This document shows positions 19,901 to 35,829 of a stretch of DNA of 38,237 bases, in pieces. Each line of letters starts with the position of its first letter. Within the stretch, counting starts at the first letter, position 1. The DNA comes from Candidatus Omnitrophota bacterium (GTDB lineage: Bacteria > Omnitrophota > Gorgyraeia > 2-01-FULL-45-10). The DNA lies in assembly GCA_026387165.1 (NCBI GenBank), contig JAPLMG010000114.1:1-38237 (forward strand). The letters are read 5' to 3'. The notes under the pieces are model-generated. The model did not search any database. It saw only the letters and a list, made by a program, of their open reading frames with translations, and was not told the DNA's origin. The position numbers were made by a program, and so were the translations under genes.

Positions 19901-22900
19901 CATTAAGGACAAGAGAGATATGCAGGTTTTCGACTTTCTCCCGATTATAAAAATTCAACTGATGGCACCGCAGCGCATCCCCCATGCCGCTCAGTGTATT
20001 TACGCCCCTGAAAGCCTCTATTAGCCGCCTTGTATCACCATCGGATGGGGCGGACTTTTCTGAAATAATGGAAGCTAAAACGTAATAAGTGAATGCCGCT
20101 GCATCTAAAGACGCCTCGGGCAGTATGCTCAGGGCGGATTCCCGGTCTCCTTTATATAAAAATATCTGCGATCTCGCTATGTCACAGGTCTTTCTGCCGG
20201 AACTTCCGGGCTGGGTATGGGCCGCGACCGTTTCGAGCAAGGCTTCGGCATCCGCGTATGCTTTTGCCGCCTCGTCGGGCCTGTTATTTCTCGCGTAATA
20301 TAACCCGAGATTGGTCAGCGCATAGACCAGGCCGACCCGTCTTCTCTGGCCGACATTGCTCAAGATGTCGCTTTTCATCAGATATCTGATTTCATCTTCC
20401 AGGCCCTCAAATTCTCCGCATAATTCGCATGCCTCGGCATGTTGAATATGCGCCTGCAAGCTGTCCGGATTGGACCTCAGGTAATGCCCGACAAGAATTA
20501 AAAGCGACTGCCATGATCTTGTGGATATAAACAACTCGCGCTGGATGTTGTATAATATTTCCTTTGCCTCATCATAAAACGGATCGCCCTTTATAAGTTC
20601 GATCTCTTCCGGTAATTTCAAGATAATAGGACTTACCCCGCCATAATCATTCACGGACAACATCCTGGATATCAGGTCCAACGTGGCCCTTATGTAGTAT
20701 GTGTCTTTTTCCCGGGATATCTTCTGCCTGAATTCTCCAAGAGAAGTGATATACAGCCTGATCCACTCCTTTGGGCGGTTCTCTTTTATGCAATCCCATA
20801 AACCGTCAAAGGCCTCCAGCCCGATTTTTTTGGCTTCCTGCCTGGCGGCTCCATTTGATAAAGCAAGAAACCTGCTAATATCGGGAATTTCTGTGTTGTA
20901 GTGTACGGCTGCCGCTATAATAGTTATTTTTTTTGCTTCTCCTTCAAGCGCTTCGCCTTCCTTTTTAAGCAGCGTCGCATAAGCTATATGGGCTCCCATG
21001 AGCGTTGATGCCCCGGCATTTAAAAGCCCGGCCCGCTCGCTGTCTGAGGCAATAATGGCCTCGCACATCTTGTGGCCTGCCGCTATTTCATCCGCCGTTA
21101 AAGGGCCGTCCTTTCTTGCAAAATAGCGTATTATGTCTAAGTAGCGCCTGACCTCGCTTTTCCACGCCTCGTTGTCTATCAAAATATTTTTCAGAACGGC
21201 CGCCGGGTCTGCCGGCACTGTCGCGAGAAGCGTTTTGCACTCTTCCGCGGATACGGGCCCGTTTAAACTAGCCGGTGTCATATTTCTACTCAGCGCAAAC
21301 CTGTTCATCAGGTGGTGGAGGCTCGCGTTTATCGCGAAGAATATGGCTGAAGAGGGCAGGACGGATAGATTGAATTGGGATATCGCTATTGCTGTAATAA
21401 TTGATATGGCTGTTACTGCCAGAGGGGTTGCAAGCGTGTTAAGTAGGACCTCGGTTTCCGGGGGGGAGCGGCCTTCGTTATCAAGCCGGTGGTCTTCAAT
21501 GTATTTTGCTCTGTTAAACGGATAGTGCAATATTACGAATACCAGGTTAAATATGTTGAGTATATATCCTCCCAGATACAGGCTTAAGCCGTAGAACCCC
21601 GCCCTGGCGGCTTCTTCTATGGGTGGAGCCAGATAGAGGGCGGGATTTCTGCCGGTGCCGATGAGCGAAGCCGGCGCCGTGCCCTGCGGCTGCGCTGTCG
21701 GCGCTGATGGTCCTTCATGAGCATAATCTTGCTCAGGAACCGGCAATCCTCCATCTATTCTTTCTTGCCTTCTTTGCTGATCCTGCGCTATGTGTTCTCG
21801 AAGTCTGTCTGCAAGTTCTTTGTATCGGCCTTCGTCCAGCCTGAGTCGTCCCTGGGATACTTCTGTTGTGGATGCCTCATCTTCTAATGTTTCGTCAAAA
21901 ACAAGAAGATGGCCCCCCTCCGCCTCAACTGCTGTTTGTATTAACGCCTTCAGCGCTTTTAACGATTCTCCAAACGCACGCAGTTTTGCTCTTAAGATTT
22001 CCACTGCCTCCGGCTTGATCTGCCCATTACGAAGCTTACTGCCAAGGTCTATCGCCTGGTTTACGGCTTCTTCCATTTCAACTTCCGCTCTTTCTTGTAA
22101 TTCCCATAATTGGAACTTTACATGATATCTTACCTTTTCTATTTTTTTTGCTAATTCTGATGGAACAGGAATAAATTCTATTTTAGCCGGAATCTCGTCA
22201 CCATTTTCATCTTCAAGGGTTAGGGCTTTTAAAAGTTCTGCGAGTCCGGGTACAGAATTAAGCGTTGGTTTTTTTGAAGGATCCAATGCCCACTTGAGGA
22301 GGTGCCTGTCCATTTCCTCTTCAAGAGTAGCATTCACTGTCCTGAGTTGTTCCAATAATTGCATTATTTGACTTCTTAAGTCACTGAATCTGGCCGCGTA
22401 TTGCGCCATCATCCTTACGCCTACATCCGCAAGCCTTTCGCCTGTTACACTTGCCTCATAGTTAAGCATGGGCGTCGGGCCATTCAATGCGTTAGCGAGG
22501 ATAATATGTTCCACCATCCTGGCTAATCCGTGCGCGTCTTCGCCGTTAATCCTTTCAAGGCCGGGGGTAGCATTATGTGATTCAACATATCCGGCCATAT
22601 ATTCATGCGCCAACTTAAGAAGCGTCTCTGTATCTCCGGCTTCTATGAGTTTCCAGTCACTTTCTCTTATAACAATTATTTCCTGCTCGGGAAGGGGAAG
22701 AGGCCGATATCCCACTGCCGGCTCCCTAACTCTTACCGGTCCATTGATTCCTTTCATAGCTTCGTGAGAATCGGGAAGAATATAAATCCTCGGAGCAAGA
22801 TAACGCCTTATGCCATCCTTCCCAAACTCTGGGCCAATGACTTCCTCTACGGCTTGTTTCACCGCTCGGCCTTGTAATGACACATTCTCTATATCATAAT

Positions 22901-25226
22901 TAGCTTGCGCAAAGCTTCTTGCCTCGTCTGCGATACGCTGTGCCTGAGCACCGGTAATGCCGCCCTGCCAGCCGTGATCGTCAACCGCCTTCGGCGTTGA
23001 CTTTGCGCTTGTGGCGATGGCTGCGTTCTCAACCTTTTTGTGCCGTAATTTTTCAATTTGTTCTTGTAACCATTTTTCAATTTTTTCGGTTATCTCTCTC
23101 TCTCGTCTGTCGTCACTTCCTATCGTATCCTCGTCCGGCCCCTTTCCTTGAGAGGCGGCTACCTGTTGATTCTTGCCACCGCCTCCACCGCCTGGTGGTG
23201 GCGGGCCACTTCCACCGCCTCCCGGGGGTTCTTCGGTCGGTTCCTCTGTGTCTTTTTGGGATGATGGCGGTCGCTGCGCCGGCAGACGCTGCGACATTGA
23301 CTTCGCGGCCGGCGCTGATGGCCCGACAGGGACTGATATTTGTGATCGTGAAGCAAGCCAGCCGTCCCTCTTTATTGCCTCTCTCATTTCAATATTCAGT
23401 TGATCCGGTATCGCGAGGGCTTTGTTAAGGACAGACGGCAGCGCCTCTCTTATGTCGCGGTATTTTTCACCCGACAGTATCTTAAAATAAGGGGACTCAT
23501 AGTTATCGGGATTCTTAAAGTTAGGCATGATAGAGACATAGGATATGTTATTCTTCTTAAAGAGTTCGGCGAGATTTTCGGTGTGAAAGCCGCCGGTGAT
23601 GAGTATCGCGGCATTTCTGAGATTGCTTCGGCCCTTCCGCCTTCGCCAAAGAGCTTTTGCCTTTGGCTTCGGCGGACAGGTCGGGCCTCGCAATGACGAC
23701 ACGGCAAACCTGATATTCTTTAAGAAAATATCATCCCTCTTAAACGAATATTCATAAAATCTGGATATCTCCTCGCGGTAGTGGTCGAGGTCGGTAATGT
23801 TATCGTCAAGCCGGGCGGTGATCTTATAGAGAGGGGCTTCTCTGTTTATGAACGATATGTAGTTGGCCGCGGAAAAGGATGCTTCATTATCGATATAATA
23901 TCTGTGATCGTCTTTTGTCAGCGTTATGCCGAATAAATTCTTTAATATCGCCAGATTCTTGGATAGTTTATTAAGCTCTCTCTGCTTGTCGCTCTTGGAC
24001 ATCTCCTCTTTTATGCTATCCTCCAGCTTTTCCAATTCATCCATTGTCTTCGTCTTGTCTATGGCGTCATATATTGAAACATATCTGATGTATTTGCGCA
24101 GTTCCGGCAAATCATTCAGACCCACATCTTTTTGCTTTGCCCTGCCCAAGATATAAGCGTAAAAGTCTTTCTGCGATATCTTTTCCACCCTGAACTCGAC
24201 CGTCTTTAACGCAAGCTCTTCCAGGTCTTTTTTGGAGAGTTTTTTCTGCAATCTTTCTATAAGCTCGTCTCTCTGTCTATTTGCCGACTTAAAGTCTATC
24301 CCGGGCTCTTCTTCAAGCGCCTGATTTAAGAGATAAATATTACTAAACGACCTGATATCTATCGCCTTCTCTTTTGCGGATTGGATGATATACGCCAGAT
24401 AGTCTTTAAACGTGATAGCTTCTGATTTATATTGGGAATACTTGCCATCGAGCCCTAAAAGCTCCCGCGAATAGATCCTGGTTTTTAGATTACTTAAAAT
24501 ATAGGTGAGTGCTTTCAGGTGCCTGTCAACTTCGTCTTTATGCTTAAGGGAATCTCTATAGACTTTGAGATTATCAAGATACAGGTTAGTATCTTCTATG
24601 CCCCAGAGAGTCGCTTTATCGGGATTGTTTATCGCGAAATATTCGGCGCCGTTGACGAGGCCTTCTTTTACAAAGCGATCGGATGCCTTATTGCGGATGG
24701 ATTTATCAGGAATGTCTGTAAATACGGAGAGATCGTAATCCCTGGCCCCGCCCTCAAGGTTTATGGCATCTATACCATATTGCTTATTCAGGTATTCGAT
24801 GATCTCGGCGATCTTGCGCTGAGCCGCGTAATTACAGTGGGCGTCCTGAATATGAATCACGACCGGAGGGAGTGATTCATATTCACCCTGAGCAAGGCCC
24901 TCGTTTGACAGTTTGCCGCGTCGAAAGGTGGATGTCGAACTCCACGAATCTTTAATATGCCCGAGGTATTCGGGCAGGCTAAAAGTATCTACATGGAATT
25001 CTTTAATCTTGTCCTCCGAAGCCTTAGCGAAGGAGGAAAGACCCGGGCCGCCGGCTCTATTAGAACCAACGGCAGTAGGCTCTATAGTGTTTCCTGCGGC
25101 CCAGGCTAAATCGTATGAGAACGTATTAAACAAGAAGGACCATAAGGTAACTAAACACACTAGCACCTTAAATGGTCCTTTTTTGAATATGGCTACACAC
25201 CTACTAGATCTGCCGTTTGAAATCAT
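13950..25226 (-). CDS. giant multidomain protein (3758 aa): signal-anchor, N-terminal module, G/P-rich linker, CPBP-like TM module, TPR-like repeats, Upf1/DNA2-like SF1 helicase, C-terminal domain
   Basis: This is an uninterrupted 11.3-kb ORF with an ATG start. GGAG lies 7 nt upstream. The N-terminus has the hydrophobic stretch FKVLVCLVTLWSFLFNTF. The linker is EEPPGGGGSGPPPPGGGGGG. The sub-features carry the domain evidence. Confidence 0.8.
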   Translation of the reverse strand: MISNGRSSRCVAIFKKGPFKVLVCLVTLWSFLFNTFSYDLAWAAGNTIEPTAVGSNRAGGPGLSSFAKASEDKIKEFHVDTFSLPEYLGHIKDSWSSTSTFRRGKLSNEGLAQGEYESLPPVVIHIQDAHCNYAAQRKIAEIIEYLNKQYGIDAINLEGGARDYDLSVFTDIPDKSIRNKASDRFVKEGLVNGAEYFAINNPDKATLWGIEDTNLYLDNLKVYRDSLKHKDEVDRHLKALTYILSNLKTRIYSRELLGLDGKYSQYKSEAITFKDYLAYIIQSAKEKAIDIRSFSNIYLLNQALEEEPGIDFKSANRQRDELIERLQKKLSKKDLEELALKTVEFRVEKISQKDFYAYILGRAKQKDVGLNDLPELRKYIRYVSIYDAIDKTKTMDELEKLEDSIKEEMSKSDKQRELNKLSKNLAILKNLFGITLTKDDHRYYIDNEASFSAANYISFINREAPLYKITARLDDNITDLDHYREEISRFYEYSFKRDDIFLKNIRFAVSSLRGPTCPPKPKAKALWRRRKGRSNLRNAAILITGGFHTENLAELFKKNNISYVSIMPNFKNPDNYESPYFKILSGEKYRDIREALPSVLNKALAIPDQLNIEMREAIKRDGWLASRSQISVPVGPSAPAAKSMSQRLPAQRPPSSQKDTEEPTEEPPGGGGSGPPPPGGGGGGKNQQVAASQGKGPDEDTIGSDDRREREITEKIEKWLQEQIEKLRHKKVENAAIATSAKSTPKAVDDHGWQGGITGAQAQRIADEARSFAQANYDIENVSLQGRAVKQAVEEVIGPEFGKDGIRRYLAPRIYILPDSHEAMKGINGPVRVREPAVGYRPLPLPEQEIIVIRESDWKLIEAGDTETLLKLAHEYMAGYVESHNATPGLERINGEDAHGLARMVEHIILANALNGPTPMLNYEASVTGERLADVGVRMMAQYAARFSDLRSQIMQLLEQLRTVNATLEEEMDRHLLKWALDPSKKPTLNSVPGLAELLKALTLEDENGDEIPAKIEFIPVPSELAKKIEKVRYHVKFQLWELQERAEVEMEEAVNQAIDLGSKLRNGQIKPEAVEILRAKLRAFGESLKALKALIQTAVEAEGGHLLVFDETLEDEASTTEVSQGRLRLDEGRYKELADRLREHIAQDQQRRQERIDGGLPVPEQDYAHEGPSAPTAQPQGTAPASLIGTGRNPALYLAPPIEEAARAGFYGLSLYLGGYILNIFNLVFVILHYPFNRAKYIEDHRLDNEGRSPPETEVLLNTLATPLAVTAISIITAIAISQFNLSVLPSSAIFFAINASLHHLMNRFALSRNMTPASLNGPVSAEECKTLLATVPADPAAVLKNILIDNEAWKSEVRRYLDIIRYFARKDGPLTADEIAAGHKMCEAIIASDSERAGLLNAGASTLMGAHIAYATLLKKEGEALEGEAKKITIIAAAVHYNTEIPDISRFLALSNGAARQEAKKIGLEAFDGLWDCIKENRPKEWIRLYITSLGEFRQKISREKDTYYIRATLDLISRMLSVNDYGGVSPIILKLPEEIELIKGDPFYDEAKEILYNIQRELFISTRSWQSLLILVGHYLRSNPDSLQAHIQHAEACELCGEFEGLEDEIRYLMKSDILSNVGQRRRVGLVYALTNLGLYYARNNRPDEAAKAYADAEALLETVAAHTQPGSSGRKTCDIARSQIFLYKGDRESALSILPEASLDAAAFTYYVLASIISEKSAPSDGDTRRLIEAFRGVNTLSGMGDALRCHQLNFYNREKVENLHISLVLNEESLDKETLTNMATFLINVSPDKALKAAIDILKAGVHNADDSKFERAFNVLRYFFGVYPDKAEDALLDMKKNGEYYSNPEIKSFIDEVTGIAEERRLSIAQEYRRAFKAGDWDVCLQIQGQYVDGPLLSSGSGSFNITRLADLVTDAMVEVSDNNSYGKTLKPFVVASHTFKGTSLINHSKWQEASGHFKKAIGLYGMLDWTRRKDVDPELLFHAYYGLAMCLINMGDDEGALKQRDTALAILQSNTELFDNDRIADFAVTSAEIIGKYRSHRAAREKLEEVRKKLGENFDKMTADTRMNFLMALSRHYYLAVYDREPSDEGPSFADAKRCVEEAIALLPYDIGSIPELDSLSPSEISVLSMAASACFMTNEYNKVWAIMDAILPIVSEGQKLTVVNMCTRQAVREHMSGNTQRALEMFRRGDALAQELMDTTKDRAILAEAAGRLAQSKACQAERFPNMKEGFAAEAEAFMRHSEGIAPTTSILYLQALFACKAGDTQKAGELLLEAMRTDIARCLIYHVNNVLNREDVEKVAGGIIISADGKDGSAEIAADFVTRLKSRAAADRITEMIRANFNDPQFFTEHKRSLMLALPVLKNLGGGEEAPFLREFREIVRDSELEKAISKAIESVEDERLQGDSWADVINRHIASAGSHFAEGDPAKAKSEIDEGLECLKRRAFLKPDGNGDIKNLKKQLTDMAESITRAEDLIRSATAAFNDKKFSKARDHRDKLIGMGYPLKPSDDLMSELDIYCKAEELYCSRDFDGALAHIAGSNNERKRSAFTKRIDTVRKAEGLAASGQFNGAIGLAGEVRKMFPGDKIAAGIETECRDAMQWVVKKLSETRSSLDEWLNALKNSASKKDVVRAAVSDIETAMAPMKEAISKYEAVRGGAEVKTMLTGVFLRAYTEGLRLKGAWQDKERGANYPDAKAYYYAALGIFSGLEDIMDHCYREKLDLPSREEIDTNVHLARVYLELSAQLQILSALYDVEKNKQEHRKDVSFEGITITESNMGFSLRRSNIKNMAGMRIRDIFSPGDTFVMLDSSGQKDNIQFEVVELNENDGGSVRFRIIERQRDRIATILSQLPKSGTMRLLPNIPLRLQFEAVSDTLNRLKLSISDNMTSKIGDDPLTLSRECDMILGLRPSVSLGGRELPLLYRSFSDPKAEKQRRFIYNAVDLSAPLTLCQGPPGTGKTTCIVECDRQLLLDAVKDETGKGMRVLNLSPSHPAVDAIGRRLAAAGVTFARVASRDEKIADDIMKIWEDKRNILRKFQDDYREKGTGYLVLGTLEGFMIDNDIRSLSKDDRFFLKYDVIVIDEAARATLPQVLAALKYLDAGKNVKIVLVGDHKQLRPHGVTNAKISECKRELADTKPTEPERAKARARLNDVFHPVRVHDYGVSPFEKLWRRDLYRENIDKHFLDINRRSHWAIVNMLNIFYDGQLVPGKPNKKLSRDTVVIYDTHGKKGAIERKEEQGRSRYNEYEIDMVVAWFGKMLAIRNDKGRLYSVKDITVVTPYKEMRARVESALKGFIQELIDSHELPQKALEELRTFDEEDDLLDIKTIDSFQGGENKVVIYPFVVSNGSNDIGFLANMNRLVVALSRAQQKLIMIGDFGWESSSNSFKGTLTNATSRLPVSVKDNLEMSEAVKRKSEAEAAAQIFRRIYRYVEELHRPRPKTSFVYPKVSEFSIKPVIDEPVPLTEEPAIDRAALVKEMKEKMAALVGDDKSTLRQKLRVDTEPDEVSKGPDAIHAILSDIRALEQPMRNELEMALRTAVMVDGLGTIDKTEHVNIVVQIAGAGESNGARRPIQEIRGRLEQYPYKLYAQSIIGEGINSWEELKEFIDRIIKSVRDPANKEPRALVLLPEDLHKYFDMAKDYFRANGINIDAPDASIKIQKIEQGANPDLVTQFGLGFEILEYVRSMEKDEKTQPSQELLNLIAAMVDADNNIDPRAIINELFKTVLRIRRIDWQTVDDQRRAWEAVATAL
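15050..16420 (-). other. superfamily 1 (Upf1/DNA2/NAM7-like) helicase core inside the 3758-aa ORF
   Basis: All motifs are in order: Walker A LCQGPPGTGKTT (16323-16350), Walker B VIVIDEAARAT (about 15942-15975), motif III VLVGDHKQLRP, INRRSHWAIVNM, TIDSFQGGENKVVIYPFVVSN, and motif VI GFLANMNRLVVALSRAQQKLIMIGD (15075-15149). Confidence 0.8.
17100..21200 (-). other. TPR-like / helical-repeat region of the 3758-aa ORF (approximate bounds)
   Basis: The region has repeated 34-residue-like A/L/Y-rich helix pairs. Examples are LGLYYARNNRPDEAAKAYADAEALL, AYYGLAMCLINMGDDEGALKQRDTALAIL and AKAYYYAALGIFSGL. Bounds were estimated by eye. Confidence 0.5.
21290..21640 (-). other. CPBP (CAAX/Abi-type intramembrane protease)-like transmembrane module in the 3758-aa ORF
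   Basis: There are three or four hydrophobic helices carrying, in canonical order, IEEAARAGF (compare EExxxR, here with R one position early), FVILH (FxxxH) and HHLMN (HxxxN). The first motif is degenerate, so the call is tentative. Confidence 0.4.
23619..23698 (+). repeat. family-1 repeat, copy inside the 3758-aa ORF
   Basis: The sequence runs gagattgcttcgg ... gggcctcgcaatgacg, with the internal hairpin gccaaagag cttt tgcctttggc. It is translated in frame as SSLRGPTCPPKPKAKALWRRRKGRSNL, immediately before the conserved-looking AAILITGGFH. Confidence 0.7.
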
Positions 25227-25332
25227 CTAATAGCTCCGTTTTGTACTTTTTAATCTTCTAAATAAATAGGTGAAAAATATACTTGTCTGCTATCGCTCAG
25301 ACAAGTGATTTGATCTGCCGTTACATATTGTA

Positions 25333-25548: not shown

Positions 25549-25708
25549 CTTTATCCCCAAGCACTTACGCTAAACCCCATGCGGTTACTTTCGCCCAATT
25601 CTAACAAACCTTCTGGCGAAGGTAACCGCATGGCTTTAGGGAGAAAAAATCACTTGAACACTCTTTAAGCCGAAAGAAGAGAGCCTCACCAAAACGAAAG
25701 GTGAAAAA
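25549..25708 (+). repeat. left 160-bp inverted repeat (IR-L) bounding the accessory island
   Basis: By hand alignment, the reverse complement of 37893-38052 matches 25549-25708 with 9 mismatches and no indels. It contains a 19-bp-stem hairpin at 25577-25633. Confidence 0.9.
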
Positions 25709-25757
25709 CAGCCTATGCAAACGATTGGGACTGTTTCGATAGGAGTTGTATAACGAA

Positions 25758-26135
25758 TTACGAGGTGGCTAACTTCGAGAGGTAACTAACGTCTATCGTT
25801 TCTATCTCCACTGCTTCTATTTTTGATTTTGGCAGGGCGCGATTAGCGGCAACCGTTCTAAACATCTCGGTAACGTTGTCGCTTGCGTTGATAAAATTGA
25901 TCTCTTTTTTCTTAAAAAAGCTCTTATTAAGCTTCTCTTTCAATACCAATAGTTCGTGCGCAGCTGATCGGGAGACAAACTCCACCGCTGAAAAGTCTAA
26001 GTTAATAGCTTTCGCATGCGCTTTTTCTATGGTCGTCTTTAGACTAGACGCTACGTCACGAGAGCCAACTATGGGCGCCAAGTTCTTAGCAACATCTATA
26101 TTAATTGTTTTTGTCTTTTTAACCATTTTTATCAC
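25758..26135 (-). CDS. STAS-like domain protein (DUF4325-like)
   Basis: 125 aa. The segment INLDFSAVEFVSRSAAHELLVL resembles the STAS/DUF4325 core (LDF.gV..isSsf.dE). It lies 28 nt downstream of the GHKL ATPase gene, the usual pairing for this family. Confidence 0.5.
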   Translation of the reverse strand: MIKMVKKTKTINIDVAKNLAPIVGSRDVASSLKTTIEKAHAKAINLDFSAVEFVSRSAAHELLVLKEKLNKSFFKKKEINFINASDNVTEMFRTVAANRALPKSKIEAVEIETIDVSYLSKLATS

Positions 26136-26163
26136 CTAACTAAGTATACCACAGCGACCGGCA

Positions 26164-27015
26164 TTATTCAATATAAGGTATTATGTTAATGGAGTGTGTT
26201 GGTTTTGGTATCCGATAGGCAATAATTACGCCTTGCCAGTAAAATCCCGGTAAATTCACTATGCTCTTCTTATTGTCAAACGATAGAAACGCTGCGTTGC
26301 CGGATAATAGCACAAACCCGCCGCCCAATGCCTCGCAGACAACCCTTGTAGATGTGCGTATCCCATACCCGCGCTCCTTATCCCGCTTGGTCGAATACCC
26401 TTCCAGTGCCTGCTTGATAGCATCTACGTCTGACAGTTCTACCTTATTTTCTTCTTTGTAGGCGTTCGCCAACCCCCTGCCATTGTCTACTATACACATA
26501 TCCAAGAAATTCTTGCTCTGATACAATTGCCCGAATACAAAACCCTCATCTTTTTTGCTGTGGTCAAATATGTTGGATATAAATTCAGCCACGGGATAAT
26601 AGATAGCGTTCTCGGTTCCCTTTGTATTGCCAAGTATCTTATAAATCATCTCCAGAAATAACGTTTCAAGGCGCTCTCTTTGTTCTCTGGCATCCTTTTT
26701 CAGAATACTGATCGGTACGAAGTTCTTGCCCTTGTGAAGCTGTTGCTCAAAGGCAGTGACCGAATCTACGCCGTGGGGGAAATTTATTGTTTCAAGATAA
26801 GATTTTAAAGACGAATTTCCAATGGTAAATGTACTGCCGGTACTGTAAATGTAAGAAGTAAGCGGCAGAACAATTAGAGGATATGCCCAGCTCATATCTT
26901 CCAGGTTGAAATTAACTTTCTCACCTTTCTTTATATTTTTAAAGGAATTATAGAGCGCCAACACCTGCTGTAATAGCGCATCGGACTTATAGTTTGGGAC
27001 TTTAACTTCTCTCAT
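26164..27015 (-). CDS. GHKL (histidine kinase-like / anti-sigma-factor-kinase-like) ATPase with an uncharacterised N-terminal domain
   Basis: 283 aa. The C-terminal half has an N-box-like EFISNIFDHS, a G1 box VDNGRGL and a G2-like ERGYGIRT. The N-terminal ~130 aa has no motif I recognise. Confidence 0.65.
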   Translation of the reverse strand: MREVKVPNYKSDALLQQVLALYNSFKNIKKGEKVNFNLEDMSWAYPLIVLPLTSYIYSTGSTFTIGNSSLKSYLETINFPHGVDSVTAFEQQLHKGKNFVPISILKKDAREQRERLETLFLEMIYKILGNTKGTENAIYYPVAEFISNIFDHSKKDEGFVFGQLYQSKNFLDMCIVDNGRGLANAYKEENKVELSDVDAIKQALEGYSTKRDKERGYGIRTSTRVVCEALGGGFVLLSGNAAFLSFDNKKSIVNLPGFYWQGVIIAYRIPKPTHSINIIPYIE

Positions 27016-27035
27016 AGCGCCCTTTCTTTGACGGT

Positions 27036-27044
27036 ATTATATCA
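27036..27044 (-). promoter_or_regulatory. extended -10 promoter element (TGaTATAAT) upstream of the GHKL/STAS pair
   Basis: The minus strand reads gagTGaTATAATaccgtcaaagaaagggcgctATG. The -10 lies about 21 nt from the ATG, with AAGGG as a possible SD. There is no good -35. Confidence 0.4.
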
Positions 27045-27205
27045 CTCGGCTTTCGTACAGCATACATAATATGCTTCGCTTCTATTGCTCAACCTTGACT
27101 CTTGCCTTAAAGTAGTTTAAGAGGTTTTGGGGACGGGTCCCTGAAAATGTTCCCTTTTCGATCAAATATGCGAGCTTTTTTAATTTTCAGTCGTAATACA
27201 TATAT

Positions 27206-28693
27206 CTACTCGCACAACTTTCTTAATTCATCTAATATTTCTATCATGCCCTTTGTATCCAAATCACAATACTTTTCAAGAGCGGCTCGGATGCGCTGGC
27301 GCTCCTTTTCGCAAACGTCTTTCCCGAAGGTTACCCGATAATACTCCCTGCTAGCCATCCCGCCATCCGCTATTTCCATATCATCGTAGCTTGATTTTGT
27401 CATCACTGGAAGGACGCTCTTGAGCGAGGCGCTACCTGCCTGGCCCGGATGGTAGTAGGAGAACCCTCGAAAAGGAACGAGCAGATCAACTATACGCTCC
27501 TCCAATCCGGCTACCCAGTCCTGATATTCAGTATATGCCTCACTTGCATGCCGAAGGGCTGTCTTTTCAAATATGGCGTTATACGCAATTATCGATCCTG
27601 AATTACCCAATAGCGCTTTCAGCTGTTTTAAAATCTCAGGCCGAGGATCATTACCGTCCGGCGCAAGATACGCGTGACGTTTGTGCTTTGCGTTCTTATC
27701 TTTGATTCTATATAAGGAATATTGAAAAGGAATGGCCTCAAACGGTCTTGAGTTGTCATAAGCCGGTATCGCGGGGTTTATCGTTTCAAAATCGAGGAAA
27801 TAAAGAGGGTATTTCAATTCTTTAATGAATTCCTCTATTGCCTTCTTGTCAATGTGCGGCTTGCCGGACCTGTGGGATATAACCTGAATATTTTGCCTAT
27901 GGCTTAAGCTTACATCTTCTTTTATATCAGTAATACGCAGTATGCCGCGCTCCATCAACTCATAGGCCTTCTTTGTTCCGGAATATAAACAAAAGATATC
28001 GTCCTTATTCGGCAGGAAACTCCAGCAGATATCCTCAAGAGGGCAAGGATATAGCTTATCACAGTGAGGGCCGACGATTACGTGCGGGGCAGCCTTCTTC
28101 CCGATCACTTCAAGCATATCGGATATATCCTCTTCAATCTCCGGAATGAGCTCATCGCATTGCTTTGTAACGTCTTCTGTGGCAAACAGCTTTTTTGGCT
28201 CTATCTTTCCTTTGCGCACATATTGGTTATTGATATACATGAGGTAACACTTGCGGATCTTCAGGCCTGAGCCTTCATATACATACTTTTGGAAGGCGAT
28301 GTCATTATAATGCTCGTCCTTTACGCTGCTGGAGCTTTTCACTTCAATGAGATCCCAGGCGTCTTTCTCAACTGGGTTAAGGATATCAGCTAAGGCATAG
28401 CCTTGTTTATACACATAACCGGCCTCAAAAAGAGGCTTTCGAAGCTTGGCGGCCTCCGAAGACTTTGTTGCCTGTTTGGTCGGATCGTAGTCTCTCTGGA
28501 GAACGATACCACCGGAAAATAGAGTATGCGCCAATTCGCCTACAATACGGCCTTGATCCATAATGAATTGTGTAGCGGCATCTATTTCCGGAAGCTCTTC
28601 CTTGCGGTTATACTCATACCATAGAAGCTTATGGCATCTAAGCCCTTCGAGGTATTTGGTTTTGGATAGAAATGGAGATGGCCTATTTTTCAT
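27206..28693 (-). CDS. DUF2779-type protein: Cas4/RecB-like PD-(D/E)xK nuclease fused to a DEDD-like 3'-5' exonuclease domain
   Basis: 495 aa. The N-terminus LSKTKYLEGLRCHKLLW is typical of DUF2779. It has ADIL...LIEVKSSS (D...ExK) and the Cys cluster HCDKLYPCPLEDIC. The C-terminal half has FLDFET (DxE), AYNAIFEKTAL and YCDLD, consistent with a DnaQ-like fold. Confidence 0.6.
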   Translation of the reverse strand: MKNRPSPFLSKTKYLEGLRCHKLLWYEYNRKEELPEIDAATQFIMDQGRIVGELAHTLFSGGIVLQRDYDPTKQATKSSEAAKLRKPLFEAGYVYKQGYALADILNPVEKDAWDLIEVKSSSSVKDEHYNDIAFQKYVYEGSGLKIRKCYLMYINNQYVRKGKIEPKKLFATEDVTKQCDELIPEIEEDISDMLEVIGKKAAPHVIVGPHCDKLYPCPLEDICWSFLPNKDDIFCLYSGTKKAYELMERGILRITDIKEDVSLSHRQNIQVISHRSGKPHIDKKAIEEFIKELKYPLYFLDFETINPAIPAYDNSRPFEAIPFQYSLYRIKDKNAKHKRHAYLAPDGNDPRPEILKQLKALLGNSGSIIAYNAIFEKTALRHASEAYTEYQDWVAGLEERIVDLLVPFRGFSYYHPGQAGSASLKSVLPVMTKSSYDDMEIADGGMASREYYRVTFGKDVCEKERQRIRAALEKYCDLDTKGMIEILDELRKLCE

Positions 28694-28813: not shown

Positions 28814-31042
28814 CTATTGATTTCGTTCCTCTTTGACAGTTTTACTCAATAACTCCCAAGCACCAATTGGATCTAATTTTGAAGAAGCATAGTCGGCTGA
28901 TAAAAGTTCTTCAGTAAGAAACAAATCATATTTTTCCTTGGCTTTGTTTTGGATGGTTGAAGCAAGTTTCAAGGGATCAACGGGGACTTCTTTCACAATC
29001 TCCTGCAAGCTCTTTTCAAGCTCTATTTCACTTATTTTTGATACAAGGATTGCAATTTTCTCATTTTCCGCTTTAAGGCCGCGGGATCGAAGCTGTGCGG
29101 CAATCGTGTTCATAATTTTGTCTCCGGCCCAGCAAAAAAATATGGCATCATTTCCATGACCAATAATCCGCTGCTTGAGCAAACCCAAGCGATTGAAAGT
29201 CTCACGCCCTTCCATGAGAAGGTCAACGGCTCTTGGATTTAAAAATTTCGGAACTTCTTCTGAGGTATAAATTGCAAGCATTTCCCGGCGCACAAAATCA
29301 TGAACCCAACCTGTATCACCGAAAAATTTCGGCGGTTTGCCTCCTGATGCAGCCGCTAGCTCTATGACTTTTTTATGAGAATCCACTATAATGACGGACC
29401 ATCGCTTACCACCAAAAATCAGGAGTGACCCCTCGCTAATGGGGCGATCTATAGGCAAGGTTCCCAGGGTGCGAGATCCTGAAATAAGACGATATTCTTC
29501 ATAGGTTGTAAACGCTGTATAGAACGAATAGTGATTGACTATTTTTTCCCCCTGTTTTCCATGAAGCAAAAGTCCATCACCGCCCTGGCAGATGAGCTCA
29601 TGTTTTCCCATACTTCTCAACAAATTTGTATACATTGCTTGATCAACTGCAGAAAACGTAGCGTGGTGGCATAAGATTTTCCATGCCTGTTCAGCAGTTA
29701 CTCCGCCATATTGAGCAATCACTGACATAACCTGTTGAACCAATGTTGAAAGATGAAGCCCATTAATCGTCGGTGGCTCATACCATTTGGCAATTAATAG
29801 CTTGACCATTGCGATAGTCTGCACAAGATCGGCTCGTAATGCGTCAATCGGATGAGTATTTTTTGTGATTTCTTCTTCCTCGATATAAACTCGCAAAACG
29901 GCTGATGTTCCTGCTCTTCGTCCCGAACGGCCCAAGCGTTGGCGCATACTGGCAACAGAAGGCGGGACCCCGATCTGCACGATACTGTCCACAGCTCCAA
30001 TATCAATTCCCATCTCCAGGGTTGAAGTACAAATAATGCTGACCGGCTGGGATTTGTCTTTAATCGCCTTTTCCGCGTCTTCCCGAAGTTCCTTTGATAA
30101 GCTTCCATGATGCGGCCAGAAAGCATTGGGGACTTTTTTCTCTTCGCACAATCGTCTTAAAAGATCCGCGTATTTTTCCACATTTGACCGGCTATTGGCA
30201 AAAACAAGATTATTGCTTCCTCGTAAAGTTTTGAAAAGAGAATTCCGTATCGCTAAAACGCTCTCGTCATCTTCCTGTGCAGAATTAGCAGATTCTTTTT
30301 CTACTTCTATGGACGTAATATTTGGTTCCCGATGCAGATATCCTTTTAAGAGGAGGCGCAATTCCTGACCACTTGATTTTGAGACAATCAACACCACGTC
30401 GTTTCCATGTCCAGGACGCAAAAACTCTGCGGCAAGGGACATATCCCCCAACGTTGCACTAAGCCCAATCCTTGGGATTTTACGTTTAATTGAAAACTCC
30501 AGACGATGGAGTAACGATTGCAACTGACATCCCCTCTCAGTTCCGATAAAAGAGTGGAGCTCATCAATCACAATATAAGCAAGATTTTTAAAAAGAGACT
30601 GAACACTATGGCCTTGATTGACAAAAATTGCTTCGGTCGATTCCGGCGTTATTAGCAAAACGCCTTGAGGATGTTTAAGGAACTTCTTTTTCTTTGAAGA
30701 TGAAATATCTCCATGCCAAGGATGGACTTGAATATCAAGATTTTGACACAATTTCTCCATGCGCGAAAACTGGTCGTTAATAAGGGCTTTTAATGGACTA
30801 ATGTAAAGAACGGAGGCAGTTGGATTCTTTAATAAATTTGAGCAAATAGGCAGGAAAGCGGCTTCCGTCTTACCGCTTGCGGTGGCAGCAGCAATAATGA
30901 TATCCTTTTCTCCCTCCAAAATAGGAGTCGCTGCAGATTCCTGAGCATCACGGAGTTCTGTCCACCCCTGTTCCCAAATCCACTTTTGAATTCTTTCATC
31001 AAAAGAGGAAAAAACGGCAGACTGCGGGGTTAAGGATTTCAT
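28814..31042 (-). CDS. sngC: Shango-like SngC: Lhr-like DExH-box helicase
   Basis: 742 aa. Motifs are: motif I AATASGKTEAA, motif II IVIDELHSF, motif III LSATLG, HHGSLSKELRE, motif V TSTLEMGIDIG and motif VI QRLGRSGRR. It lies 7 nt downstream of the ATPase gene. Confidence 0.7.
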   Translation of the reverse strand: MKSLTPQSAVFSSFDERIQKWIWEQGWTELRDAQESAATPILEGEKDIIIAAATASGKTEAAFLPICSNLLKNPTASVLYISPLKALINDQFSRMEKLCQNLDIQVHPWHGDISSSKKKKFLKHPQGVLLITPESTEAIFVNQGHSVQSLFKNLAYIVIDELHSFIGTERGCQLQSLLHRLEFSIKRKIPRIGLSATLGDMSLAAEFLRPGHGNDVVLIVSKSSGQELRLLLKGYLHREPNITSIEVEKESANSAQEDDESVLAIRNSLFKTLRGSNNLVFANSRSNVEKYADLLRRLCEEKKVPNAFWPHHGSLSKELREDAEKAIKDKSQPVSIICTSTLEMGIDIGAVDSIVQIGVPPSVASMRQRLGRSGRRAGTSAVLRVYIEEEEITKNTHPIDALRADLVQTIAMVKLLIAKWYEPPTINGLHLSTLVQQVMSVIAQYGGVTAEQAWKILCHHATFSAVDQAMYTNLLRSMGKHELICQGGDGLLLHGKQGEKIVNHYSFYTAFTTYEEYRLISGSRTLGTLPIDRPISEGSLLIFGGKRWSVIIVDSHKKVIELAAASGGKPPKFFGDTGWVHDFVRREMLAIYTSEEVPKFLNPRAVDLLMEGRETFNRLGLLKQRIIGHGNDAIFFCWAGDKIMNTIAAQLRSRGLKAENEKIAILVSKISEIELEKSLQEIVKEVPVDPLKLASTIQNKAKEKYDLFLTEELLSADYASSKLDPIGAWELLSKTVKEERNQ

Positions 31043-31049
31043 AAAATTC

Positions 31050-32363
31050 TCAGAGTTGAAAAGAGGCTAAATTCTCTGTATCACCTTTTTCTGCTGGTTC
31101 TTCTGCCAAAGGTTCCAAGTCGGGGTTAGATTCTTTTTTAATTTCGACCGTGCCGATCAAATCCTGCCAGTTAACATTTTTATTCTGTTCGAGTACCGAT
31201 AACAAATTAACGAATGCCGTAATCGTCGTCCTGGGAGTCCTAAAATAGGCATCTCCAATTCTTTTTGAACAATGTTCCATAAAAGCCTTCAATCCGTCAT
31301 CAGGAAGAAGATAAGCTGCCGAATCTCCATAAGCAAAAACGTGTCGAATATTGCCGATTAAAATATAAAAATCTTCCGGGCTTAAGTTGCCTAACCGCAA
31401 TACTGGCCCCGTAAGATCAACCAATCCGTTAACGGCAAAAACATTTTCTACCAGACGCGATTGAAGAGCCGGATAACTATAGAGGCCGCGACGTGTATCC
31501 ATCAAAAATTCAGGAGTCCCTCCCATCAGAATACCTAGCCCTGAAGCAATCCCCTGAAGACTGTCGTTCAAGATGCGAAGAATTTGTTCATAATTAGAAT
31601 TCCGCGCTTGTGTATTTGAAAGCTTATAAATATTCACAAGTTCATCCAAACATATTAAAAATCCATCATATCCTGCCAATTTTATGAACAGTGCCATGAG
31701 TTTTAAATGATCGTAAAAAGAGGCGTCATCAATGATGACACGAACCCCCAAAGCTGTCCTGGCTTCTGTTTTGGTGGAGAATTCACCCCGCAACCACCGT
31801 ATAGCGTCCGATTTAAGTTGTTCGTTGCCGGTATCATGACCTTTCCAGTATGCAGCAATGACATTTGCGAAATCATAGCCGCCCACCATCTCTGAAAGTT
31901 TTGCTAAACGCTCATGAATTAAGGTTTCCGGATTGGTATTTCGCGCACATGCTTCTTTGAGAATTTCGGAAATAAAACGCTCTACGATACTGGTAAGAGC
32001 GCCACCATCCGGCTTGGTTCGTGTGGAAATATTTCGCATAAGTTCCGCGTACAAGGAGCGAGCCTGGCCGCCTGTAGCATGAAGTCTTCTGTCAGGTGCC
32101 AAATCGGCATTTGCTGTAACTAGCCTCTTTTCCATGGCAATCGCACGAATCAGGTTCAAAAAAAATGTTTTTCCTGAACCGTACTCTCCAATTATGAATC
32201 GTATTGTCGAACCAGAATCCGCAATACGCTCAATGTCCTTAATTAGAGCTTCTACTTCCTTAACCCTTCCTACTTGAATAAGATGCTGGCCGGTTCTTGG
32301 AACAACCCCTGCTCGAAGCGATTGTATAACCGCGTCACGGTCTTTAGGACGAATGGTTGTCAT
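31050..32363 (-). CDS. sngB: Shango-like SngB: P-loop ATPase (DUF2791-type)
   Basis: 437 aa. Walker A is IGEYGSGKTFF and Walker B is FLICLDELVN. Its start overlaps the stop of the TerB gene by 4 nt (ATGA), implying translational coupling. Confidence 0.7.
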   Translation of the reverse strand: MTTIRPKDRDAVIQSLRAGVVPRTGQHLIQVGRVKEVEALIKDIERIADSGSTIRFIIGEYGSGKTFFLNLIRAIAMEKRLVTANADLAPDRRLHATGGQARSLYAELMRNISTRTKPDGGALTSIVERFISEILKEACARNTNPETLIHERLAKLSEMVGGYDFANVIAAYWKGHDTGNEQLKSDAIRWLRGEFSTKTEARTALGVRVIIDDASFYDHLKLMALFIKLAGYDGFLICLDELVNIYKLSNTQARNSNYEQILRILNDSLQGIASGLGILMGGTPEFLMDTRRGLYSYPALQSRLVENVFAVNGLVDLTGPVLRLGNLSPEDFYILIGNIRHVFAYGDSAAYLLPDDGLKAFMEHCSKRIGDAYFRTPRTTITAFVNLLSVLEQNKNVNWQDLIGTVEIKKESNPDLEPLAEEPAEKGDTENLASFQL

Positions 32364-34681
32364 GTTTGAAGCTCCTTTAAAACATTAGGATTAATTTCAA
32401 TCGGGTCATCGCCTTCAAAAAAAGGCTGATCAAAAGCCGTAAATGCGGCATCATTTATTGAATCGAGCACACCATCCAAAAGTAAATCGTTTTTAGCGGC
32501 AAGAGCTTCGATTTCCTCTCTTGCCCAAGATAACTTCTGGGAAAGTTCTTTGATGAATCCATGATATTCGGATTCAAAATGCTTGAAATTTCCCGCCACT
32601 TCGATTATAGTTTTTTCGACAATAGGAGATAGTGTTTTCTCTTCGTTAAAAATATTGCTAAGCATCGCTGTCACTGCGGCGGTTTCGGCAAGTTTCACAT
32701 CAACCTTATTCATGTCGAGTTCAACACTCACGAACTTCTTCCTGTGAGCAGGCTTCGGTACAGCATAGGATGGCCCTTGCGTTTCCGCGTCCTCGATCTT
32801 AACCGGCTCTGTTGCCGCAATGTGAACATGGCTATAAAGCTCTTTGGAGTCAAGGCCAATAAGTCCGTAAATTTTATTCAATATTTTAACTTCGGAAGAA
32901 TCAATATAACCGTCCACTTGGGCAACTGAGACTAAAAACCTTCCGAGAGTTTGACGCTGCGTTTGATTAAAAGATTCCAAACGCTTTTTAACCCCTGAAA
33001 AATTTAAGGAACTGGAAAATATCCATCGCGTATGAGCACGCAGCCTTACTCTTTCATCTGAACTAAGCTGGAACCGGTTTTTTAATTGCTCCTCCAAAAG
33101 CCTCTCTTCTTCTTCAGATACTTTTCCATCTGATCCTGCAACCGCTGCTGCTAAGTGAAGGATAGTGGTGGCCGAAGCGTATTCCGGCGTAGGGGAATTA
33201 GCCGACTCCGTTGGCGATCTAAACAACACTACGGGTCCCGATTCCGGTAAAGAACCGTCAAACCGGACATCCGGCTCTATTCCAACGCCTATTTTGGCCA
33301 ATAACTGGCACAAAGCCATGAAATCACGCTTATTGAAACTTTCCGGTTTTAACAAAGGAAAATGTCGAACAATACTTTGAATATCAGTCACAAACATCTG
33401 ATCCGATACTATATTCTTGCTAAGCCATTGCTTCAAGGCTTGCAGTTCGTCATCTTGATAATCTTTCAATAGCGGAGCGGGAAATAACGCCAATTTAGCA
33501 AGTGGTGAAGGATCATTACCACTCCTTCCCAGATATCGACTATAAGGGTCAAGTTCTGAAACGCATGCTTCCGCAATTTTTAACATCTGGTTAATTGGCC
33601 CACGATATGCCGCAACATCCAACAATCCTTCCTCAACCCACTCAACGGCTCCTCCAAAAGAAGCACTTGCAGGACGATAACTACCTCTGAGCTTGGATCC
33701 CTTTTGGAGAAGCATTAAACCTTCTCCAAATTTTTCTCTGTAACGAACGTGAAATAATTTTCGGAATTCCTCTTTGCATCGGTATGCGGGCGTGCGTAGT
33801 CTGCTCTCTGGGTCATTTTCCACCCAAGCAAGAGCCCAATCAGGCGGTAGCGGTATGCCATCAGCGGCTAACTGAGCTAATCCTTTCTTCAAACCAAAAG
33901 GCAGCTCATATCCTTTTCCCTCAAATGATGGTGAATTTTTATACAACTTGTCTTTTGTTCTTCTCGATTCAACGGCACTTATAAAACCCGCTGTATAATT
34001 TAAAAAGGATGACGTATTGTAAATAGTTCTTAACCGTTTAATTTCGGTAAGAATTACCTCCAACTCTTCTTTTGCAGCAGATGAATTTTCTGCATCAGAG
34101 AGAGCTCGCCGCTCAAGACCATAAAAATAAAGAAAAACATAGCTAATATTAATACTGGGATCCTTGCAACCGTCCGCCAGCCACTGCAAATAAGCGTTTC
34201 TTGAAGCGGGATGAATCTGACTATACGATGGCCAATAGGACATGTGCATGCCATCCTTATCAAATGAATCTTTCTCCACAGGCAAAGAGGGGTCAATCAA
34301 TGCTGGTTCGATATCCCATCCAATGCCCCGTCCTCGTGCATAATATAAGCCATGACCAACGTAAAGCAATCCGCCCGAAATTGTATAGCCAGCAACTGTA
34401 ACAGGTTTTCCTTTGGGAATCCAAACATAATCAGGAAAAATAGAAGATTTTTGGCGGGAAGAATAATCTGAAGTAGAAATAGGTGCCCTATCGATTATAG
34501 GCTCTATATCTGTTGTCTTGTATATATATCCTCGTATATCTTGCTCTTGAATTGTTATCGTCGATGTGTCCAAACCATCCTCATGGCTTAATTTTTTCCC
34601 TGCGCCGTCTTGACGCTTTTTTTGTTGCGCCAAAGAAAAAATGAACATAAACACAATTATTAGTATGATGACTATCCCCAT
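32360..34681 (-). CDS. sngA: Shango-like SngA: membrane-anchored TerB-N / TerB / TerB-C domain protein
   Basis: The ORF track starts at a TTG (34711). I prefer ATG 34681, with AAGGGA 8 nt upstream, because a TATAAT box lies inside the TTG extension. It has an N-terminal TM (GIVIILIIVFMFIFSLA) and a TerB-N-like WIPKGKPVTVAGYTISGGLLYVG. TerB-like DG motifs are AVAGSDGKVSEEEE and VAQVDGYIDSSE. The TerB-C-like segment is VELDMNKVDVKLAETAAVTAMLSNIF. Confidence 0.7.
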   Translation of the reverse strand: MGIVIILIIVFMFIFSLAQQKKRQDGAGKKLSHEDGLDTSTITIQEQDIRGYIYKTTDIEPIIDRAPISTSDYSSRQKSSIFPDYVWIPKGKPVTVAGYTISGGLLYVGHGLYYARGRGIGWDIEPALIDPSLPVEKDSFDKDGMHMSYWPSYSQIHPASRNAYLQWLADGCKDPSINISYVFLYFYGLERRALSDAENSSAAKEELEVILTEIKRLRTIYNTSSFLNYTAGFISAVESRRTKDKLYKNSPSFEGKGYELPFGLKKGLAQLAADGIPLPPDWALAWVENDPESRLRTPAYRCKEEFRKLFHVRYREKFGEGLMLLQKGSKLRGSYRPASASFGGAVEWVEEGLLDVAAYRGPINQMLKIAEACVSELDPYSRYLGRSGNDPSPLAKLALFPAPLLKDYQDDELQALKQWLSKNIVSDQMFVTDIQSIVRHFPLLKPESFNKRDFMALCQLLAKIGVGIEPDVRFDGSLPESGPVVLFRSPTESANSPTPEYASATTILHLAAAVAGSDGKVSEEEERLLEEQLKNRFQLSSDERVRLRAHTRWIFSSSLNFSGVKKRLESFNQTQRQTLGRFLVSVAQVDGYIDSSEVKILNKIYGLIGLDSKELYSHVHIAATEPVKIEDAETQGPSYAVPKPAHRKKFVSVELDMNKVDVKLAETAAVTAMLSNIFNEEKTLSPIVEKTIIEVAGNFKHFESEYHGFIKELSQKLSWAREEIEALAAKNDLLLDGVLDSINDAAFTAFDQPFFEGDDPIEINPNVLKELQT

Positions 34682-34700
34682 CGCATCTATCCCTTGAATT

Positions 34701-34729
34701 ATTATAGACAAGACCTCTCAATATGACAC
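34701..34729 (-). promoter_or_regulatory. candidate promoter of the Shango-like operon (GTGTCA-N17-TATAAT), with the -35 inside a motif shared with the XRE gene
   Basis: The minus strand reads caGTGTCAtattgagaggtcttgtcTATAATaattcaagggatagatgcgATG. The -10 is a perfect hexamer at 34706..34701. The -35 at 34729..34724 overlaps the 11-mer AGTGTCATATT. Confidence 0.45.
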
Positions 34730-35184: not shown

Positions 35185-35829
35185 TTACTTATTAGATTTA
35201 GGTTGCGATGGCCCCCTATAATCGCGAGGATCTATACAGGTATCATAAGTCTGCCTATCGATTTTAATCCATTCTGTTTTATTGATACCTCTTGAATTCG
35301 TATAAGTTGGGCTTACGGGGAAGGCAGATGCTATTCTTATCCAACGTTTTTGCTCAATCGATATTACCCTAATCTCATCGGCTACTTCGCTTAAATCTTG
35401 ATCCTGGCTAAAAACTAGTGCTACATCATATACTTTTTGATGGGCAAGACGAATAATGTCGAGAGCTATGCGAATATCTATGCCTTTTTCTCGCCCCACA
35501 AGGAAAGTGTGAACATTGCCATTCGGAAGTGTTATTTTTTCATTATTATAACGTAGAGACCTTGAATATACTTCAATTCCTACCTGGCCCATAGAGGCTA
35601 ATTTATTATTCCAAAAAGTATTCCAAAAAATATTATCTTGAACATCAGGCACGCCAGTATAGAAACATATCTTGGCTAAATCCCATCCCTTAGAAGAACA
35701 TATTTTCTCTGACAGTTTTTTAATATCATAGTTAGGGTAAATATAGCCAAAGGCGTCTTTAGCGCCTCTATATAAGCACTGGCCATCAACAAAAACTACT
35801 GCCTTTTTTATAGTGGGTTCTTTTGCCAT
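35185..35829 (-). CDS. NYN (LabA/DUF88-like) domain protein, putative RNase
   Basis: 214 aa. Acidic NYN signature blocks are in order: VVFVDGQCLY, GREKGIDIRIALDIIRLA, and VALVFSQDQDLSEVA. Confidence 0.7.
   Translation of the reverse strand: MAKEPTIKKAVVFVDGQCLYRGAKDAFGYIYPNYDIKKLSEKICSSKGWDLAKICFYTGVPDVQDNIFWNTFWNNKLASMGQVGIEVYSRSLRYNNEKITLPNGNVHTFLVGREKGIDIRIALDIIRLAHQKVYDVALVFSQDQDLSEVADEIRVISIEQKRWIRIASAFPVSPTYTNSRGINKTEWIKIDRQTYDTCIDPRDYRGPSQPKSNK

Follow-up and report, generated by a model that had tools for sequence, protein, structure and literature searches.

A horizontally mobile gene pair encoding a putative GHKL kinase and its predicted STAS substrate, related to CapK/CapS and VapK/VapS, in an Omnitrophota genome

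Background

What can a GHKL ATPase gene and a STAS gene be switching when they stand together with no sigma factor beside them? This question is raised by a stretch of 38,237 nucleotides (nt) from a Candidatus Omnitrophota bacterium (contig JAPLMG010000114.1 of assembly GCA_026387165.1; the whole of this stretch is hereafter called the window), in which a gene for a GHKL ATPase (K) is directly followed by a gene for a single-domain STAS protein (S). A first-pass annotation made from the sequence alone had seen in them a partner-switching pair without a sigma factor and without named relatives, and had proposed an uncharacterised sensor or switch module, possibly acting through an adjacent nuclease. 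A sensor or switch module is still the best reading of the pair. We consider it rather likely that K-S is a kinase-substrate cassette of the same type as CapK/CapS and VapK/VapS, autonomous and horizontally mobile, responding most likely to single-stranded DNA (ssDNA) and acting on a partner that is either encoded elsewhere or K itself.

The precedent for such a switch is described in a recent report (Chambers et al., EMBO J 2026; PMC13373217). CapK, a protein with a helix-turn-helix (HTH), a STAS and a GHKL domain, is activated by ssDNA and phosphorylates CapS, a STAS protein with a winged helix-turn-helix (wHTH), on Ser54; CapS then leaves the DNA and CBASS, Bub or Thoeris operons are de-repressed, the CapKS genes being sandwiched between an upstream defence system and the downstream operon (PMC13373217). 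In VapKSC, VapK (STAS-GHKL) and VapS (STAS plus a brief C-terminal stretch) release the PIN toxin VapC, the kinase being the sensor and not the toxin, and the system protects Escherichia coli from a phage (PMC13373217). Contacts with ssDNA are predicted for VapK F54 and for CapK W68 and K239 (PMC13373217). Between them, a GHKL kinase and its STAS substrate can thus convert an ssDNA signal into either the induction of an immune operon or the release of a toxin.

The K-S family is large and keeps this sensor-switch core with neither of the two published outputs. As a two-gene branch it has not been described before, and the group to which it belongs had its first members characterised no earlier than 2026. 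The branch is concentrated in the candidate phyla radiation (CPR)/Patescibacteria, the Omnitrophota and archaea, where defence and stress signalling have barely been studied; phages carry it too. The core mechanism of K-S is probably not surprising. Identifying the target of S, or establishing whether K is itself the effector, would reveal how a minimal switch works, and might also bring to light a mechanism of defence or addiction that suits very small genomes.

Results and discussion

The proteins encoded by K and S

The first-pass annotation of a GHKL and STAS pair is upheld by the open reading frames (ORFs), by the alignments and by the predicted folds. K has about 130 close homologues, all of them 280 to 286 amino acids (aa) long and 45-96% identical, and the three boxes that had been picked out by eye lie in invariant columns of an alignment of 108 sequences. 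These columns comprise E144, N148, H152 and S153 in the N-box (E144xxxN148xxxH152, ending in F150-D-H-S153), D177, G179 and G181 in G1 (D177-N-G-R-G-L182), and R215, G216 and G218 in G2 (G216-Y-G-I-R-T221). The catalytic motifs of K are intact, and W43 and K168 are conserved in at least 90% of the same sequences. The AlphaFold2 (AF2) model of K (pLDDT 89, pTM 0.89) has two domains; the C-terminal one matches the Bergerat folds of Hsp90/Grp94, GyrB and WalK in Foldseek comparisons, and the N-terminal one, previously unassigned, has a topology and a MAFFT alignment with the N-terminal domain of VapK that suggest it to be the counterpart of the STAS-like sensor domain in VapK and CapK.

The gene for S had been given as 125 codons starting 28 nt after K. 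The STAS gene is there, and its start is the ATG at 26126, which makes a protein of 122 aa after a gap of 37 nt, since homologues of S (about 115) are 118-123 aa long and the GTG at 26135, from which the gap of 28 nt would be counted, belongs to a Shine-Dalgarno sequence (AGGTGA) that precedes the ATG by 5 nt. AF2 models S (pLDDT 86) as a STAS fold with a C-terminal helix. Its best Foldseek matches in the PDB reach E-values of about 1e-2 only and form a consistent list, namely TM1442, SpoIIAA from the complex with SpoIIAB (1til, 1tid, 1thn), RsbS, MlaB and the STAS domains of SLC26 proteins. The protein has no wHTH or other DNA-binding domain, consisting of the STAS domain and one helix. Its invariant residues are S22, F45, S52, R53, S54, A55, H57, L60, F78 and M88 (S52-R53-S54 being invariant in 89 sequences); conservation extends to a VAANRAxPK motif and to a C-terminal helix with D-I-x-S-L, and in the STAS alignment an acidic-hydrophobic-S-L helix at the C-terminus is common to the phage homologues.

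The predicted phospho-acceptor of S is Ser54, which lies in the FVSRSAAHELL segment where the first-pass annotation had placed it and falls in the same alignment column as Ser54 of CapS, an acceptor proven by experiment. Two further serines of this alignment, VapS S48 and the residue that we take to be SpoIIAA S58, are each one column off.

Searches of Pfam, NCBIfam and PADLOC with K and S gave sub-threshold or generic matches only. The families named for checking by the first-pass annotation were all matched below threshold, HATPase_c by K (E 1.7e-3) and STAS and DUF4325 by S (E 3e-3 and 0.084), as was STAS_2 by S (E 0.014); K has no match to Pfam HATPase_c_2. Because all these Pfam matches are sub-threshold, the domain calls rest on structure prediction and on family alignments. 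The earlier DUF4325-type label, for which S scores 13 bits against a gathering threshold of 23 bits, fits relatives of S better than S itself, among them gp42 of Bacteroides phage BF1-TP2 and the STAS partner of the kinase in a distantly related locus, L063 (47 bits, E 2e-12). When the family profiles of both proteins were run against the sequences of the PDB (177,635), nothing significant was found; the best GHKL chain for the K profile had an E-value of 0.32, and no SpoIIAB, RsbW or histidine-kinase chain fell below 0.3. A match of K to the PADLOC 'DrmA' model PDLC02567 (E 7.7e-11) was set aside, as it covers the GHKL region only (model positions 101-252); it was not reproduced with the 1747-aa HATPase protein of locus L066.

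Relationship to CapK/CapS, VapK/VapS and phage proteins

Named relatives of the pair do exist, contrary to the first-pass annotation: CapK/CapS and VapK/VapS of VapKSC are homologous to it, and its phage homologues make up PHROG 3364. With the VapK, VapS, CapK and CapS sequences taken from the source data of PMC13373217, the K profile gives per-sequence E-values of 8e-13 for VapK (34 bits) and 5e-8 for CapK, alongside 6.5e-15 and 1e-10 for the CapK-like genes of loci L057 and L061, 7.5e-20 for the L063 kinase, 2e-57 for BF1-TP2 gp43 and 3e-37 for ORFB of the Methanothermobacter prophage psiM100. A direct BLASTP comparison of the window K with VapK (26% identity over 140 aa, E 7e-7) extends past the HATPase core to a C-terminal strand (FYWQGVII in K, FYFEGTIL in VapK). 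In a MAFFT alignment of 15 kinases, the column of the catalytic Asn (CapK N218, K N148) is invariant, K168 of K shares the column of CapK K239, and W43 shares that of VapK F54, which is aromatic in 14 of the 15. Sequence comparison therefore indicates a specific relationship of K to VapK and CapK.

K-S shares much of its plan with VapKSC: K appears to have the two-domain layout of VapK (STAS-like and GHKL, about 300 aa), the gene order is K then S, W43 aligns with VapK F54, and S, a STAS protein of some 120 aa, ends in a short helix and has its conserved Ser where helix 2 begins. The differences are that K-S comes without VapC or any other third gene, and that it is centred on CPR, Omnitrophota, archaea and phages, whereas VapKSC is centred on Proteobacteria. 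With CapK/CapS the pair shares a homologous GHKL kinase, including the N218/N148 and Lys239/Lys168 column pairs, and the position of Ser54. K, however, lacks the N-terminal HTH of CapK and starts directly with the alpha/beta domain, S cannot repress as CapS does since it has no wHTH, and K-S is not consistently found upstream of immune operons. Certain distant relatives (L057-L064) do look like genuine CapK/CapS pairs, as their partners are proteins of 183 aa with a C-terminal wHTH.

The phage and prophage proteins are true members of the family and have the same two-gene arrangement. The window K matches PHROG 3364 (function unknown) with an E-value of 3.2e-36 over K residues 18-273 and profile positions 21-292 of 304, and the S profile recovers BF1-TP2 gp42 and psiM100 ORFC at 2e-17 and 2e-18. 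Annotated only as hypothetical, ATP-binding or DUF4325, these members add data on distribution and mobility.

Linkage of the two genes and their neighbours

Loci were collected as 65 from species-representative genomes and 54 viral contigs, both seeded with K, and 80 from metagenomes, seeded with S; a stop-to-stop census was made over all three sets. K and S are both intact in 143 loci and adjacent in every one of them, typically with gaps of 20-50 nt, and within the genome set S comes after K, in the same orientation, wherever the locus has room. The 29 loci of the census with an intact S beside a truncated, frameshifted or absent K (about 5 of them from UGA-recoding genomes) have no counterpart in which an intact K stands with S missing or broken. 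This asymmetry is suggestive only, because K is 2.3 times longer than S and S-seeded searches favour an intact S; in the K-seeded sets alone, K is lost beside an intact S in 6 loci and the reverse is seen in 0 (p about 0.1). Two loci (L066, positions 392-2689, and L067, positions 3105-5397) have an S gene 91% identical to that of the window behind a gene for a 442-aa ATPase_2/DUF234 protein. A swap of partners in these loci can be ruled out, since a remnant of the first 18 codons of K survives upstream: K has been replaced while S stayed intact.

No third gene is conserved with the pair. When the ORFs within 10 kb on either side of 56 genome loci were clustered, no family apart from K and S turned up at more than 7 of the about 60 loci. 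Scanning three genes on each side of K-S gave 256 neighbours (122 upstream and 134 downstream), among which no family of sigma factors or of PP2C is represented twice or more, with possible sigma factors numbering at most one among the upstream and one among the downstream genes. This agrees with the first-pass annotation that no sigma factor is involved, as does the presence of the pair in archaea, and the linkage to sigma factors that it had wished to see checked in other genomes is not recurrent. PIN (VapC-like) genes are not among the neighbour families seen in at least two loci, and the single PIN gene found (in Thermococcus) comes with a VapB-like partner of its own. Downstream of K-S, the genes are heterogeneous between loci, often on the opposite strand and mostly of the housekeeping kind. 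K-S is thus not mainly a gene pair of defence islands.

Distribution and mobility

Most carriers of K-S belong to the CPR/Patescibacteria, the closest relatives of the window pair being from Omnitrophota. An exhaustive search of 1.84 billion representative sequences with the K profile returned 286 clusters (at 50% identity) with E<1e-30, 1196 with E<1e-10 and 4188 with E<1e-3, and the matching proteins are almost all 280-310 aa long. In Thermococcus the order of the genes is inverted to S-K. Another archaeal copy is carried by a plasmid of Halobaculum marinum (NZ_CP119990.1), where a 98-codon ORF 3' of the K homologue (L213, positions 4802-5095), unannotated and missing from the gene table of the plasmid, encodes an S homologue (E 9e-7) with the motif VEFVSRSVADEL.

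Movement of the pair as a block is documented. The Methanothermobacter prophage psiM100 carries K as ORFB and S as ORFC, with chromosomal homologues MTH315 and MTH316, and the 'inserted fragment IFa' of 2.8 kb that distinguishes it from phage psiM2 (L206, positions 4640-7432; NC_002628.3, positions 6786-9578; beside 125-nt tandem repeats) is in essence made up of K, S and the start of ORFD, the pair taking up most of it. In Bacteroides phage BF1-TP2, K is gp43 ('ATP-binding') and S is gp42 ('DUF4325'); the 54 viral contigs with K-S form one closely related group. The context of K-S differs in nearly every genome. K-S is, in short, a horizontally mobile cassette. One further arrangement deserves mention: the 1266-aa protein P0299 (L207, positions 1-4171) joins a DEAD/ResIII helicase to a complete K module placed C-terminally, and is followed 16 nt on by a 117-aa S homologue (E 1.4e-12). 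This fusion suggests a link of the module to nucleic acids, which we count in favour of the mechanism proposed below.

Proposed mechanism and alternative explanations

We propose that K would combine a degenerate STAS-like sensor domain with a GHKL serine kinase domain of the anti-sigma-factor kind, S being its dedicated single-domain STAS substrate. A cue would bind in the groove between the two domains of K, around Trp43 and Lys168, and by analogy with CapK and VapK it would most likely be ssDNA arising from DNA damage or infection. Once the bound cue had turned the kinase on, K would phosphorylate S at Ser54, and phospho-Ser54 would flip the binding of S such that a partner is released or captured by its Ser54 face together with its conserved C-terminal helix. 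As S lacks a DNA-binding domain and the pair is not accompanied by a toxin gene, that partner would be either K or a protein whose gene lies elsewhere. Two outputs are left, in which either K is freed to act or S controls a distant protein through its C-terminal helix; the decay pattern fits both.

Several observations weigh against this interpretation. The STAS-like nature of the N-terminal domain of K is argued from topology and one alignment, and an hhalign comparison of this domain with the S family is not significant (probability below 1%). CapK W68 falls outside the W43 column in the alignment of 15 kinases, and S is only marginally similar to VapS and CapS in sequence (E-values of about 1e-3 to 3e-2 per sequence). 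The neighbours of K-S are mostly housekeeping genes (ribosomal L10/L12, IF3, SecDF, PGK, RNA and DNA polymerase subunits), only a minority having to do with defence or toxin-antitoxin functions (AbiEii/AbiEi, SoFic, type I, II and IIG restriction-modification (RM), reverse transcriptase, DUF3800), so that a defence role is not established.

The pair could instead be a self-contained toxin-antitoxin or abortive-infection system, in which K arrests growth, either by phosphorylating promiscuously or by inhibiting, in an anti-sigma-like way, some essential protein of host or phage, and S is its antagonist or decoy: a trigger would activate K, S would be phosphorylated and let go, and K would be freed. 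In favour of this, the cassette travels as exactly two genes with no conserved third, AbiE, Fic and VapBC modules are frequent neighbours, and K decays or is replaced beside an intact S in about 20 independent loci (L066 and L067 among them), never the other way round. The asymmetry is statistically weak for the reasons given above, though, and would be equally well produced by an S that neutralises a toxin encoded elsewhere, while the kinase of the related VapKSC is a sensor and not a toxin. That the bare pair is a complete immune or addiction module, a 'partner-switching toxin-antitoxin' with a growth-arresting K activated by nucleic acids and S as antidote or decoy, is unlikely in our view; if true, it would mean a toxin-antitoxin pair that is common among ultra-small bacteria of the CPR, Omnitrophota and archaea and is carried by their viruses. 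Still less probable is the three-gene system envisaged by the first-pass annotation, in which the DUF2779/Cas4-like nuclease next to K-S in the window would be the effector, in parallel to VapKSC. A DUF2779 gene is also found directly upstream of K-S in L044, with a gap of 1 nt, and two genes downstream in L069, and 3 of about 130 loci with such a gene within two genes of the pair do exceed random placement. About 127 of the 130 lack it, however, and in L069 it is placed and oriented differently with respect to K-S; genes 93%, 82% and 79% identical to that of the window occur without K-S, next to integrase, reverse transcriptase, RM or PLD/SNF2 genes, and DUF2779 homologues number in the thousands, being far commoner than K-S in Omnitrophota. 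The genomic context largely refutes this explanation.

Two further possibilities appear remote. One is a classical partner switch, with an anti-sigma kinase and an anti-anti-sigma factor serving a sigma factor encoded elsewhere. The ExxxNxxxH form of the N-box is typical of SpoIIAB/RsbW and is that of K, the fold of S matches SpoIIAA, and some homologues bear the JGI names 'anti-sigma regulatory factor' and 'anti-anti-sigma factor'; K-S indeed resembles SpoIIAB-SpoIIAA and RsbW-RsbV in pairing a GHKL serine kinase, as K is predicted to be, with a single-domain STAS substrate bearing a Ser at the N-terminus of helix 2. It differs from them in the extra domain of 128 aa, absent from RsbW and SpoIIAB, in the lack of a HATPase_c_2 match and of any recurring sigma factor or PP2C gene, and in its presence in phages and in archaea, which have no sigma factors (Thermococcus, Methanothermobacter, Halobaculum). 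An anti-sigma switch is excluded as a general explanation because the pair is found in archaea and viruses and no sigma factor or PP2C recurs beside it, and the archaeal pairs make a clean case against naming such proteins 'anti-sigma factors'. The other, to which we give just as little credence, is a CapKS-like transcription switch acting on the downstream gene, in the window an ORF of 3758 aa with a helicase region that resembles Mokosh MkoA. The order Shango, K-S, downstream operon does match the CapKS 'sandwich' (PMC13373217), but S lacks a DNA-binding domain, the 183-aa wHTH partners being found only with the distant L057-L064, and the downstream genes are unrelated across loci.

Genomic context in the window

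The features of the window are listed in Table 1. The minus strand is the coding strand of all genes in the K-S part. The extended -10 promoter of the first-pass annotation is present as a consensus match only, the number of sites in the K-S region not being above that in shuffled sequence, and an Rfam scan of positions 25100-27300 gave no match.

Table 1. Coordinates of K, S and surrounding features in the window
Feature	Position	Strand	Remarks
K gene	26164..27015	-	283-aa ORF; two-domain GHKL serine-kinase-like protein; CapK/VapK relative, PHROG 3364 member
K N-terminal domain (residues 1-128)	26632..27015	-	beta-alpha-beta-alpha-beta in AF2 secondary structure; presumed STAS-like sensor; F36, W43 and P46 conserved
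K GHKL (Bergerat-fold) ATP-binding/kinase domain (residues 129-283)	26167..26631	-	from invariant columns and Foldseek
S gene	25758..26126	-	122 aa; single STAS domain and conserved C-terminal helix; start ATG 26126
Ser54 codon of S	25965..25967	-	predicted phospho-acceptor in S52-R53-S54; invariant; column of CapS S54
Extended -10-like TG-n-TATAAT	27036..27044	-	read from the sequence, 20 nt 5' of the K ATG
DUF2779/Cas4-like nuclease gene	27206..28693		adjoins K-S
Shango system	28814..34711	-	full; SngC 1e-281, SngB 1e-184, SngA 7e-85
NYN-domain protein gene	35185..35829	-	beyond Shango; matches PADLOC HEC-09
MobC-like protein gene	37104..37889	-	after the NYN-domain gene
Giant ORF	13950..25226	-	3758 aa; 3' of S across a 530-nt spacer; residues 2939-3384 Upf1-like SF1 helicase (AAA_11/AAA_12), also matching Mokosh MkoA (9e-56)
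Second giant ORF	6304..13254	-	2316 aa; no Pfam or PADLOC match
Inverted repeat	25577..25633		19 nt, 95% complementary, 19-nt loop; inside the 530-nt spacer
23S rRNA intervening-sequence protein gene	4522..4899	-	PF05635, 5e-32; between amidohydrolase and GlmS genes

The neighbours named by the first-pass annotation are as described, the Shango-like system being a full one. At 25 kb the GC content drops from about 0.5 to about 0.4, which together with Shango and the NYN-domain and MobC-like genes gives the impression of an integrated island of the mobile or defence kind. A related genome has the same core flank (amidohydrolase, GlmS, TP_methylase) and a DUF2779 gene 93% identical to that of the window, with integrase and HTH genes where the window has K-S and the giant ORFs. 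This sharing of a core flank with different cargo implies that K-S is cargo in a variable island. The defence-island setting proposed earlier holds for the window and does not extend to most other loci.

DUF2779 genes of Omnitrophota (75-93% identity, many contigs; compare L209/L210, positions 7001-8485, with the window gene) lie beside changing cargo, such as reverse transcriptase, integrase, RM, PLD/SNF2 or Shango genes. DUF2779 may mark an insertion hot-spot or be itself a resident of islands.

Giant genes are also found near relatives of K-S in L041 (3086 aa) and L066 (1747 and 4765 aa), and are not homologous to those of the window. The two giant ORFs of the window were considered as partners of K-S and discarded, their products being dissimilar to the 3086-aa protein of L041 and the 1747-aa protein of L066. 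The inverted repeat between S and the larger giant ORF is not a canonical terminator, since no run of T follows it on the minus strand. At the far end of the window, the amidohydrolase and GlmS genes that are separated by the intervening-sequence protein gene are adjacent in the related locus L210.

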